Shown: positions 1,736 through 4,700 of the stretch, piece after piece
Numbering within the stretch: the stretch's first letter is position 1
How the letters are laid out: every line of letters begins with the position of its first letter
Virus record (IMG/VR): IMGVR_UViG_2671180884_000018
From: a virus
Lineage: Duplodnaviria > Heunggongvirae > Uroviricota > Caudoviricetes
Length of the DNA: 6,772 bases
Reading direction: 5' to 3' (one strand)
The notes under the pieces: model-generated
The model's input: the letters and a program-made list of their open reading frames with translations, nothing else
What the model was told of the DNA's origin: nothing
Databases searched by the model: none
Made by a program: the position numbers and the translations under genes

Positions 1736-4700
1736 ATGGGTAAAGGCAGCAGTAAGGGGCATACCCCGCGCGAAGCGAAGGACAACCTGAAGTCCACGCA
1801 ACTGCTGAGTGTGATCGATGCCATCAGTGAAGGGCCGGTTGAAGGTCCGGTGGATGGATTAAAAAGCGTGCTGCTGAACAGTACGCCGGTGCTGGACAAT
1901 GAGGGGAATACCAACATCTCCGGCGTCACGGTGGTGTTCCGGGCAGGTGAGCAGGAGCAGTCACCGCCGGAGGGGTTTGAATCCTCCGGCTCCGAGACTG
2001 TGCTGGGTACGGAAGTGAAATATGACACGCCGATCACCCGGACCATCACGTCGGCAAACATCGACCGTCTGCGCTTTACCTTCGGTGTACAGGCACTGGT
2101 GGAAACCACCTCAAAGGGAGACAGGAATCCGTCGGAAGTCCGCATGCTGGTTCAGATACAGCGTAACGGTGGCTGGGTGACGGAAAAAGACATCACCATT
2201 AAGGGCAAAACCACCTCGCAGTATCTGGCCTCGGTGGTGGTGGATAACCTGCCTCCGCGCCCGTTCAATATCCGGATGCGCAGGATGACACCGGACAGTA
2301 CTACAGACCAGCTGCAGAACAAAACGCTCTGGTCGTCATACACCGAAATCATCGATGTGAAACAGTGCTACCCGAACACTGCACTGGTCGCCATACAGGT
2401 GGACTCGGAGCAGTTCGGCAGCCAGCAGGTGAGTCGTAATTATCATCTTCGCGGGCGCATTCTGCAGGTGCCGTCGAACTATAACCCGCAGACGCGACAA
2501 TACAGTGGTATCTGGGACGGAACGTTAAAACCAGCATACAGCAACAACATGGCCTGGTGTCTGTGGGATATGCTGACCCACCCGCGCTACGGCATGGGGA
2601 AACGTCTTGGTGCGGCGGATGTGGACAAATGGGCGCTGTATGTCATCGGCCAGTACTGCGACCAGTCAGTGCCGGACGGCTTTGGTGGCACGGAGCCGCG
2701 CATCACCTGTAATGCGTACCTGACCACACAGCGCAAGGCGTGGGATGTGCTCAGTGATTTCTGCTCGGCGATGCGCTGTATGCCGGTATGGAACGGGCAG
2801 ACGCTGACGTTCGTGCAGGACCGACCGTCGGATAAGGTGTGGACCTATAACCGCAGTAATGTGGTGATGCCGGATGATGGCGCGCCGTTCCGCTACAGCT
2901 TCAGCGCCCTGAAAGACCGCCATAATGCCGTTGAGGTGAACTGGATTGACCCGAACAACGGCTGGGAGACGGCAACAGAGCTTGTGGAGGATACGCAGGC
3001 CATTGCCCGTTACGGTCGTAACGTCACGAAGATGGATGCTTTTGGCTGTACCAGCCGGGGGCAGGCACACCGCGCCGGGCTGTGGCTGATTAAAACAGAA
3101 CTGCTGGAAACGCAGACCGTGGACTTCAGCGTGGGCGCAGAAGGGCTTCGCCATGTGCCGGGCGATGTCATTGAAATCTGTGATGATGACTATGCCGGTA
3201 TCAGCATCGGCGGGCGCGTGCTGGCGGTAAACAGCCAGACCCGGACGCTGACGCTCGACCGTGAAATCACTCTGCCATCCTCCGGTACCACGCTGATAAG
3301 CCTGGTTGACGGAAGCGGCAATCCGGAACGATACCGATGCCGGATCGCCCTGCTGTCCCCACGCATTTACCGCCCGGACTGTCAGCCTGTAGTTCCCCAG
3401 CGCCAGTTGCCTGAAGCGGTATGTGGTTTCCGCCGTCCGGGCCGTGCTGACCAGCAGCTCACTGCCGTCATCCGCTGCCACGGTCAGGCGAAGCAGGAAA
3501 CTCACGCCCTTCACCACCTTCGGCGTGTCCCAGCGCGCCAGCACCTGATATTCCCCGCTGTCTGCGGTGACTTCGGCGGTCAGGTGCTGCACCGCTGGCG
3601 GCGTGACACCATTCACCGTGCCGCTCTGGTCGCCGTCAAAGTGCGCCCCGTTATCCACGATGGCCTCTTTTTCCGGTACATGCTGCACGGCGGTGATGGC
3701 ATACGTGCCGTCGTCGTTCTCACGGATACTCACGCAGCGGAACAGGCGCTGGCGCAGCGTCGGCAGCTTCAGCCCCCACACGCTGTATTCAGCAACGCCG
3801 TCAGGAACACGGCTCACTTTCACCTTCACGCCGTCGGTGACGGACTGAACCTCCACGCTGACCGGATTGCCGCACCGGCAGCGCCGTCACAGATTGAGCT
3901 GACGCCGGGCTATTTTCAGATAACTGCCACGCCGCATCTTGCGGTTTATGATCCGACGGTACAGTTTGAGTTCTGGTTCTCGGAAACGCGGATTACCGAT
4001 ATCAGGCAGGTTGAAACCACAGCCCGCTACCTTGGCACGGGGCTGTACTGGATAGCCGCCAGTATCAATATCAAACCGGGCCATGATTATTACTTTTATA
4101 TCCGCAGTGTGAACACCGTTGGCAAATCGGCATTCGTGGAGGCCGTCGGTCGGGCGAGCGATGATGCGGAAGGTTACCTGGATTTTTTCAAAGGCAAGAT
4201 AACCGAATCCCATCTCGGTAAAGAGCTGCTGGAAAAAGTAGATCTGACGGAGGATAACGCCAGCAGACTGGATGAGTTTTCGAAAGAGTGGAAGGATGCC
4301 AACGATAAATGGAATGCCATGTGGGCTGTCAAAATTGAGCAGACCAAAGACGGCAAACATTATGTCGCGGGTATTGGCCTCAGTATGGAGGACACGGAGG
4401 AAGGCAAGCTGAGCCAGTTTCTGGTTGCCGCTAACCGTATCGCGTTTATTGACCCGGCAAACGGGAATGAAACGCCGATGTTTGTGGCGCAGGGCAACCA
4501 GATATTCATGAACGACGTGTTCCTGAAACGCCTGACGGCACCCACCATTACCAGCGGTGGCAGTCCTCCGGTATTTTCCCTGACATCAGACGGAAAGCTG
4601 ACCGCTAAAAATGCGGATATCAGTGGCAGTGTGAATGCGAACTCAGGGACGCTCAACAACGTCACGATTAATGAGAACTGTCAGATTAAGGGGAAACTGT

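Follow-up and report, generated by a model that had tools for sequence, protein, structure and literature searches.

The 6,772-nucleotide stretch of DNA analysed here (the window) carries the gene of the tail-tip protein J of a lambdoid E. coli prophage located at the argU/DLP12 site. The beginning and the end of this gene are read in the usual sense, and its middle is encoded on the opposite strand. The question raised by this locus is whether the middle of J is truly inverted in living bacteria and, if it is, whether the inversion is an accident that happened once, a product of faulty assembly or a device that switches the tail-tip protein between two forms.

The inverted segment of gene J and its repeats

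Alignment demonstrated that positions 1–3326 and 3862–6772 of the window run colinear with the J regions of both E. coli 2012EL-2448 and phage λ, and that positions 3315–3871 match the opposite strand, with an identity of 100% to 2012EL-2448 and 96% to λ. The original prediction, which was made from the letters of the window and proposed an alignment to λ J as a check, held that an internal segment of J is inverted with breakpoints within a repeat, and both alignments bear this out. The 535-bp spacer between the repeat arms (3327–3861) is the exact reverse complement of the matching piece of gene J. When the spacer was reverse-complemented, the window showed one mismatch in 6772 positions to the prophage of 2012EL-2448, with no gaps and no bases gained or lost. 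The approximately 180 missing residues of J, predicted to lie on the minus strand, were found to be the 179 residues VSVEVQ...ASVSF (J 531–709). The predicted perfect 12-bp inverted repeat at 3315–3326 and 3862–3873 is also present, the arms being exact reverse complements of each other in the window. The arms, at codons 527–531 and 709–713, and the inverted segment are wholly within J. The features of the gene are as follows.

1736–3326, + strand: 5′ part of J in the wild-type sense (codons 1–530 and the first base of codon 531), colinear with J of 2012EL-2448 and 99.97% identical to it
Residues 86–207 and 330–496 of the 5′ part, + strand: Pfam matches to FNIII-A_GpJ and Phage-tail_3, respectively
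3315–3326, + strand: left arm, GCGGCAATCCGG, codons Ser527-Gly-Asn-Pro530 of J
3327–3861, − strand: inverted 535-bp spacer, the authentic coding sequence for J residues 531–709, matching the opposite strand of 2012EL-2448 at 100% identity
3862–3873, + strand: right arm, CCGGATTGCCGC, reverse complement of the left arm, codons Arg710-Ile-Ala-Ala713, same as in the wild type
3862–5134, + strand: 3′ part of J in the wild-type sense (beginning with base 2 of codon 709 and including the stop), 100% identical to 2012EL-2448
Residues 716–818, 846–972 and 1008–1132 of the 3′ part, + strand: Pfam matches to FNIII-2 (Ig_J_second), Phage_Tail_Tip and the receptor-binding domain (Ig_GpJ_C), respectively

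The inverted repeat is exactly 12 bp long, with no extension in either direction. The window contains seven distinct perfect 12-bp inverted-repeat pairs (eight 12-mer matches) versus about two in dinucleotide shuffles, and the ancestral J gene contains more than a dozen 10-bp inverted-repeat pairs. A 12-bp repeat is unremarkable by itself; the non-random part is the coincidence of the breakpoints with that particular pair. Both breakpoints are located inside a short inverted repeat that the uninverted ancestor already had, since λ and the wild-type relatives carry GTGGCAATCCGG ... CCGGATTGCCGC at homologous positions, 535 bp apart.

The left arm of this ancestral pair was not identical to that seen in the window. 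The left arm of λ and of the closest wild-type relatives, GTGGCAATCCGG, matches the repeat in 11 of 12 positions and contains a 10-bp perfect core. Position 3316, which lies within the left arm and is the sole base that differs between the restored window and 2012EL-2448, is C in the window and T in λ and in all close wild-type relatives, including all four that are near-identical. This synonymous transition (AGT to AGC) replaces the mismatched base with the one matching the right arm. In a comparison of the carriers of the inversion with their closest wild-type relative, STEC2018-553, four SNPs were found in 18.6 kb, and one of them is the mismatched arm position. The original prediction took the perfect 12-bp repeat as the substrate of the rearrangement, but the ancestor had a repeat of 11/12, and this point has to be corrected. 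It is most likely that the perfection of the repeat is a product of the inversion event and that the change of the arm and the inversion, as judged from the resulting sequence, took place at one time.

Distribution of the inverted form

In NCBI draft assemblies, 113 contigs encode exactly this chimeric J protein of 1132 amino acids, which forms a 90% cluster by itself. The carriers are all drafts assembled from short reads. Every one of the 113 contigs has the chimeric J at full length, and with no assembly broken within the gene there is no hint that the orientations are mixed. Three carrier assemblies examined, which come from two accession series (JAHV... and AARF...), show the same arrangement, and their loci are 100% identical to the window and among themselves over 15.4–15.8 kb.

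Outside these contigs the inverted form was sought in several ways. A colinear match to the window across the inversion (1.4-kb query) was found in none of 5,426 complete E. coli genomes and in none of 168 phage records with a J match; neither of the 60-nt junction probes was covered to at least 80% in any complete E. coli genome, and the flanks of the window had no match at 100% identity in any of them. Exact and degenerate junction probes had no match in metagenomes, GTDB representatives and IMG/VR contigs; an orientation-neutral probe, used as a control, detected at least 120 loci in each of two collections. Among 240 arm-bearing J copies from these control loci, none contained an inverted junction, and the restored wild type is colinear with each of the 221 copies spanning the region. 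A search of 5.8 billion proteins with the antisense peptide of 179 aa found no other chimera, with imperfect sensitivity, as it also missed the chimeric protein of the window itself. What this search did return were spurious antisense ORFs, 312 aa long at most, from many wild-type J genes. The inversion is real and heritable. It reads as a single event because it is represented by one exact sequence and no inverted junction was found elsewhere, and a single origin in one E. coli clone seems probable.

The C variant of the left arm also exists in J genes that are not inverted. It was found in at least 89 complete genomes, all of them uninverted, and the perfect 12-bp repeat was confirmed at both arms in the six genomes checked. 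Among the 240 sampled metagenomic and viral loci, nine have the C arm and eight have the perfect repeat, all in the wild-type orientation. The frequency of the C arm in J genes of other lineages is about 3–4%. The perfect repeat does not drive flipping, because complete genomes possessing it are uninverted. A progenitor or a revertant, that is, a J gene in the wild-type orientation with the C arm and near-identical to the window, was sought among the loci with this arm, covering six of the complete-genome records (at least 89 in total) and each of the nine sampled loci. None was found among these C-arm loci, which are 92–95% identical to the window.

Consequences for the J protein and for the prophage

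The plus-strand ORF at 1736–5134 encodes 1132 amino acids, of which residues 531–709 differ from those of wild-type J. The lost native segment comprises the end of the hub domains, the linker and FNIII-1, and these residues of J match the structures 8IYK and 9E7M of the PDB, described as ‘Tip attachment protein J’. The Pfam domain Ig_J (610–714), present in wild-type J, is gone from the chimera. The 179 antisense-encoded residues that replace the native segment matched no Pfam family. The replacement peptide is basic and rich in Arg and His, with a pI of 10.9 vs 5.6. It is likely that the function of the chimeric J is lost and that the gene is a disguised pseudogene.

The chimeric ORF owes its full length solely to the codon alignment of the flip and to the lack of stops in the antisense frame across this GC-rich stretch. 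The codon-aligned antisense frame of J is stop-free over codons 312–717 (406 codons), and of 954 windows with a length of 179 codons, 282 are open in this frame. The open ORF was also considered as a sign of selection for a recoded protein; this was rejected, the aligned antisense frame being stop-free for 406 codons regardless. Annotation pipelines call the broken J an intact 1132-aa ‘host specificity protein J’, and it is present under this description on the 113 draft contigs and in UniRef. Neither the length of a gene nor an open ORF guarantees its integrity, and chimeras of this kind contaminate protein databases.

Other genes of the prophage were inspected as well. An IS3 element is inserted in the tail-assembly gene T in all four close wild-type relatives. 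One carrier contig (L003) begins within the end of IS3, and it is very probable that the carriers share this insertion. The prophage of the relatives, and probably that of the carriers too, would be incapable of building tails. J would then be under no selection, because gene T had already been broken by IS3. The annotation of the 2012EL-2448 prophage, from argU/intD to ompT, contains no invertase, and the only recombination-type genes in it are those of IntD, RusA and the IS3 transposase. No resolvase or integrase family of Pfam is listed for the three carrier loci.

Origin of the inversion and comparison with known systems

The reading that fits these observations best, with a probability of roughly 85%, is that a single spontaneous inversion, involving no specific enzyme, occurred between short inverted repeats natural to J and reached fixation in one clone of E. 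coli. At the molecular level, template switching in the course of replication (copy-choice) would be the most likely route. The nascent strand, made from right to left, would copy the right arm first and then switch to the sister template at the left arm, which is complementary; the 535-bp spacer would be copied in reverse, and the strand would jump back. Both arms of the product would be templated by the right arm, and the ancestral 11/12 repeat would become a 12/12 repeat as the spacer flips. Of the simple models tabulated, the observed arms are obtained only with the one in which the right arm is the template for both. A published signature of intermolecular template switching, where the inverted repeats are short and not identical, is homogenisation of the arms together with inversion of the spacer (PMC8604942), and a fixed, non-variable micro-inversion at 8-bp repeats that inactivated a gene has been described in E. 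coli (PMC4272514). The original prediction had offered three options, and its first one, a spontaneous short-repeat inversion inactivating J in a decaying prophage, gains support from the exactness of the flip, the single sequence of the carriers and the IS3-broken gene T of the relatives. Template switching is favoured as the route on the evidence of the arms, short of proof, because a SNP that preceded the inversion, or heteroduplex repair, could also give the T-to-C change.

It is possible, though rather unlikely, that the same one-off inversion took place through reciprocal recombination at short homology, either RecA-dependent or illegitimate, instead of copy-choice, and that the arm was made perfect by a prior T-to-C SNP or by mismatch repair of a heteroduplex. 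The change at 3316 is a transition without effect on the protein, the C arm is a natural polymorphism (found in 89 or more complete genomes and in 9 of the 240 loci sampled), and published work can be cited in support (PMC4272514, PMC11040001). Against this, the C arm is absent from all four near-identical wild-type relatives, the C-arm loci checked reach at most 95% identity to the window, and a simple crossover, wherever in the repeat it falls, needs an extra step to give the observed arms. For the variant in which the SNP came first, the chance that a random SNP made exactly this change of the arm is 4 × (1/18638) × (1/3), or about 7 × 10⁻⁵. Efficient RecA recombination usually demands a minimum homology well above 10–12 bp, and the RecA route is disfavoured because the homology available here is under this minimum.

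The two other options of the original prediction found no support. An assembly artefact would mean that reads were mis-joined at the inverted repeat and that the true genomes possess a wild-type J. All 113 carriers are indeed drafts, and the inversion was found in no complete or long-read genome, but the identical arrangement was obtained in three assemblies from two accession series, a T-to-C change in the arm is unexpected from mis-assembly, and thousands of J genes were assembled uninverted, including perfect-repeat alleles in complete genomes and in eight metagenomic or viral contigs. The k-mers of short-read assemblers, even the smallest known, and the reads themselves exceed 12 bp; a 12-bp repeat gives no assembly ambiguity because it is shorter than both. 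An artefact is thus very improbable. Similarly, there is little reason to believe in a programmed or recurrent reversible switch, an intragenic ‘recoding’ inverton toggling the tail-tip protein J. The layout formally fits an intragenic inverton, with repeats inside one gene and a flipped ORF that stays open (bioRxiv 10.1101/2023.03.11.532203); E. coli prophages often contain tail-fibre segments that can invert (PMC4272514), and inversions bounded by repeats are reversible in principle. However, no invertase is annotated in the prophage of the relative, the arms measure only 12 bp, and the inverted state is one exact sequence, with no inverted junction in any other collection searched, though the repeat is conserved across lambdoid J genes. 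Besides, the recoded 179 residues are without a family match, the open frame is explained by composition, and the IS3 in T precludes tails in the relatives and probably in the carriers. A milder version, in which template switching or an unlinked recombinase makes the repeat pair of lambdoid J genes act as a low-frequency reversible inverton that toggles the tail tip off and on, with the clone caught ‘off’, is hardly plausible either. If it were true, the change that perfected the arm would increase the rate of flipping.

The inversion in J can be compared with several known systems. The invertible tail-fibre segments of the Hin/Gin/Cin/Pin type, found in Mu, P1, e14 and P2-like prophages, resemble the J case in that a phage host-range or tail gene is inverted. 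They are accompanied by an adjacent serine invertase, have longer specific crossover sites and supply alternative functional C-termini, all of which J is without: no invertase gene adjoins the segment, and, instead of two functional ends that both occur among strains, the change in J is internal and the inverted form is found in one sequence. Both orientations of such segments are met among strains and within cultures (PMC4272514). The intragenic invertons of Chanin et al. (bioRxiv 10.1101/2023.03.11.532203) share with J the location of the repeats within one gene and the recoding of an internal segment with an open ORF (the ‘recoding’ class). By definition, however, a population with such an inverton contains both orientations, and the flip is presumed to be the work of an invertase. 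For J no invertase was found, each lineage appears to have a single orientation, and the inverted form is one exact sequence that shows no sign of recurring. The inversion in J is in all probability an ordinary spontaneous rearrangement and reveals no new switch, system or function.

Other counterparts are found among ordinary mutations. The micro-inversion of E. coli KLY (Goldberg et al., PMC4272514) is likewise spontaneous, is bounded by very short inverted repeats and disrupts a coding sequence; it acts as a mutation and not as a switch, as the J inversion also seems to do. It is 24 bp long, arose in laboratory evolution under antibiotic selection and has a phenotype, whereas the J inversion is 535 bp long, occurs in natural isolates and is probably neutral. 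Template-switch mutations (the Ripley model; Abraham and Hazkani-Covo 2021, PMC8604942) also have their breakpoints in a short inverted repeat in coding DNA, and in them, as in J, the spacer becomes its exact reverse complement and an imperfect repeat becomes perfect with no dedicated enzyme. The yeast cases described have spacers of 2–5 bp; in J the spacer is 535 bp, one arm position was converted and the mechanism is deduced from its product. Spacers in published template-switch inversions range from a few to tens of bp. The J inversion appears to offer a clean case, found in nature, of inversion at short repeats with a spacer as long as 535 bp, and it bears the arm-homogenisation footprint that is expected of template switching and has been documented mostly for spacers of a few bases.

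Inversion within gene J

The window represents the tail-tip end of a lambdoid prophage, which in complete genomes occupies the argU/DLP12 site, with fimZ-argU-intD on one side and ompT-envY-ybcH-nfrA on the other. Its genes are as follows:

1-358, L, 3' end
363-1106, K
1103-1675, I
1736-5134, J
5201-5800, lom
from about 5865, stf (side tail fibre gene), start

The window is colinear with the closest complete genome, that of E. coli 2012EL-2448, over 1-3326 (99.97% identity) and 3862-6772 (100%), and the segment 3315-3871 aligns at 100% to the opposite strand. The alignment to phage λ that the original prediction had proposed shows the same pattern, including the opposite-strand segment, at lower identity. 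Reverse-complementing 3327-3861 leaves a gap-free alignment to 2012EL-2448 with a single mismatch across the 6772 bases. The opposite-strand alignment and the colinearity restored by flipping confirm the predicted internal inversion of J, and the 12-bp inverted repeat at 3315-3326 and 3862-3873 matches its description exactly. The arms do not extend in either direction. Such a repeat is not unusual by itself, since the window contains seven distinct perfect 12-bp inverted-repeat pairs (eight 12-mer matches) versus about two in shuffled sequences, and ancestral J contains more than a dozen 10-bp pairs.

The + strand J ORF still comprises 1132 codons after the flip, with residues 531-709 antisense-encoded, which bears out the claim that the true J residues lie on the - strand. 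In the wild type, these residues match λ gpJ in the solved tail-tip structures 8IYK and 9E7M, and include the end of the hub domains, the linker and FNIII-1 (Pfam Ig_J, 610-714); Ig_J is lost in the chimera. The FNIII domains of λ aid tail-tip sealing and reposition upon receptor binding (PMC11101478). As this region is replaced by a basic, Arg/His-rich peptide (pI 10.9) without any family match, J should be inactive. The ORF remains open because the arms lie in mirror-image codon phases, making the flip codon-aligned, and the aligned antisense frame of J codons 312-717 (406 codons, equivalent to window 2669-3886) is free of stop-generating codons; no selection is needed to keep it open. The main practical point is that annotation as a full-length J ORF does not exclude a disguised pseudogene.

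Antisense ORFs of J also seem to be the source of dozens of "hypothetical proteins" (about 100-312 aa; P0017-P0056) in public databases for E. coli, Shigella and Salmonella. On the - strand, 2666-3856 forms a hybrid ORF of 396 aa in which authentic J sequence (residues 533-709, GTG as Met) is followed by the antisense of upstream J; gene-calling software could report it as a protein in its own right. The C-terminal receptor-binding part of J (4693-5134) has no nucleotide match to λ J, the alignment stopping at ~4692, and is still matched by Pfam Ig_GpJ_C; the receptor specificity presumably differs from that of λ for LamB. The N-terminal part of stf (6414-6772) contains several imperfect direct repeats of 17-28 nt, whose spacings are multiples of 3 (27, 63, 84, 105, 126 and 147), consistent with a repetitive protein segment.

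Occurrence of the inverted form

Colinearity with the window across the inversion was found in 0 of 5,426 complete E. coli genomes, a search covering 22,596 J-like places with separate opposite-strand pieces counted in, and in 0 of 168 matching phage records; no complete genome covered at least 80% of either junction. The inverted left junction was also sought with a degenerate probe, which matched nothing in IMG/VR, GTDB species genomes or metagenome contigs. An orientation-neutral control probe from the same spot detected at least 120 loci in IMG/VR and at least 120 in metagenomes. The inverted junction was absent from all 240 arm-bearing J copies in these loci, and the 221 copies spanning the region were all colinear with the restored wild type. 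A homology search with the antisense peptide recovered only spurious antisense ORFs, all of them short, and no further chimeric J, a negative to be read with care because the search also missed the window's own chimera (P0001) in the same collection. In these collections, the inverted form was thus found in nothing beyond one sequence.

The exact chimeric protein, the one member sequence of its 90% cluster, is encoded by 113 contigs of NCBI draft assemblies, and three carrier loci from two different accession series (L003-L005) match the window at every one of its 6772 bases and are identical to one another over 15.4-15.8 kb. Short-read assemblers are not known to use k-mers as short as 12 bp, and the same repeat, its perfect form included, is uninverted in all other assemblies examined. 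For these reasons an assembly artefact, one of the explanations originally considered, is very unlikely.

Repeat arms and the route of inversion

The sole base difference from 2012EL-2448 lies in the left arm at 3316, where the window has C against T in both 2012EL-2448 and λ. The ancestral repeat was thus an 11/12 match whose perfect core measured 10 bp, and perfection is confined to the inverted allele. The carriers differ from STEC2018-553, their closest wild-type relative, by four SNPs over 18.6 kb, one being 3316 and three lying in the tape-measure gene; all four close wild-type relatives have T at 3316. The tape-measure SNPs (L003 1895, 2004 and 2159), upstream of the window, are carrier-specific relative to all four, form a cluster within 265 bp, perhaps a small patch of recombination, and might serve to trace the lineage of the inverted clone.

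The chance of a random SNP at 3316 with the base matching the other arm is about 7e-5, and therefore the T>C change and the inversion are almost certainly linked. The arm outcomes of each simple model were compared with the window.

Predicted arms under simple models of inversion
Reciprocal crossover in the 10-bp core: left arm keeps T; no match
Reciprocal crossover outside the mismatch: T shifts to the right arm; no match
Copy-choice, right arm templating both arms: left GCGGCAATCCGG, right CCGGATTGCCGC; match

It is most likely that the inversion arose by replication template switching, in which the right arm would have served as template for both arms. Two other routes are less likely, namely a crossover followed by heteroduplex repair, and a T>C SNP preceding the inversion. 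The C arm is indeed a natural polymorphism (at least 89 of 3,367 complete-genome records; 9 of 240 sampled loci), but the C-arm loci compared, six of the complete genomes and all nine sampled loci, belong to J lineages only 92-95% identical to the window. Both arms were checked in six C-arm complete genomes and eight sampled loci, where the repeat is perfect and J uninverted; as, moreover, none of the 89 C-arm complete genomes has the inverted junction, a perfect 12-bp repeat is not enough for flipping at a noticeable rate. In a wild-type-oriented J (L051, IMGVR_UViG_2541047794_000002), the arms are homogenised the opposite way (left GTGG..., right ...GCCAC), which makes the repeat perfect with a T:A pair and changes Ala713 to Thr; either an ordinary SNP or arm homogenisation that left no net inversion could account for this.

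Prophage decay and comparison with known inversions

Each of the four near-identical wild-type relatives (L249-L252) has tail-assembly gene T interrupted by an IS3-family element, and carrier contig L003 starts within the end of this element:

L249 9072-10249 (NZ_CP027586.1 3780071-3781248), IS3-family element in T
L250-L252 4539-5716, IS3-family element in T
L003 1-119, IS3 end at the carrier contig start

This contig start suggests that the insertion is probably common to the carriers and older than the inversion. Tail assembly in λ requires the G-T frameshift product. With T interrupted, the prophage was probably already unable to build tails, J already dispensable and the inversion neutral. 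Three C-arm J alleles in complete genomes (L255-L257, e.g. NZ_CP054214.1 1956742-1960332) lie in a prophage remnant, with J fused directly after essD and a truncated lysozyme gene and adjoined by an ompC-like porin; one is also split by IS4. This arrangement would represent another route of J decay.

The J inversion is real and heritable, appears to be a single event at a short inverted repeat naturally present in the gene, lies in a prophage that was probably already tail-defective, and is probably fixed in one E. coli clone. The single sequence and the IS3-broken T of the relatives support the first of the original explanations, a spontaneous short-repeat inversion inactivating J in a decaying prophage. 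A reversible tail-tip switch is unlikely, as only one inverted sequence was found and no invertase is listed in the carrier loci; the whole prophage of a complete relative encodes IntD (integrase), RusA and an IS3 transposase and no Hin/Pin-type invertase. Intragenic invertons are defined by both orientations coexisting within one sample (bioRxiv 10.1101/2023.03.11.532203). The carrier contigs show no sign of such a mixture. In a systematic survey of E. coli, the truly phase-variable inversions except fim were all in prophages and flipped by a Hin homologue; a repeat-bounded micro-inversion without a Hin homologue acted as a fixed mutation (PMC4272514). The J inversion is a further instance of an already known type of mutation.
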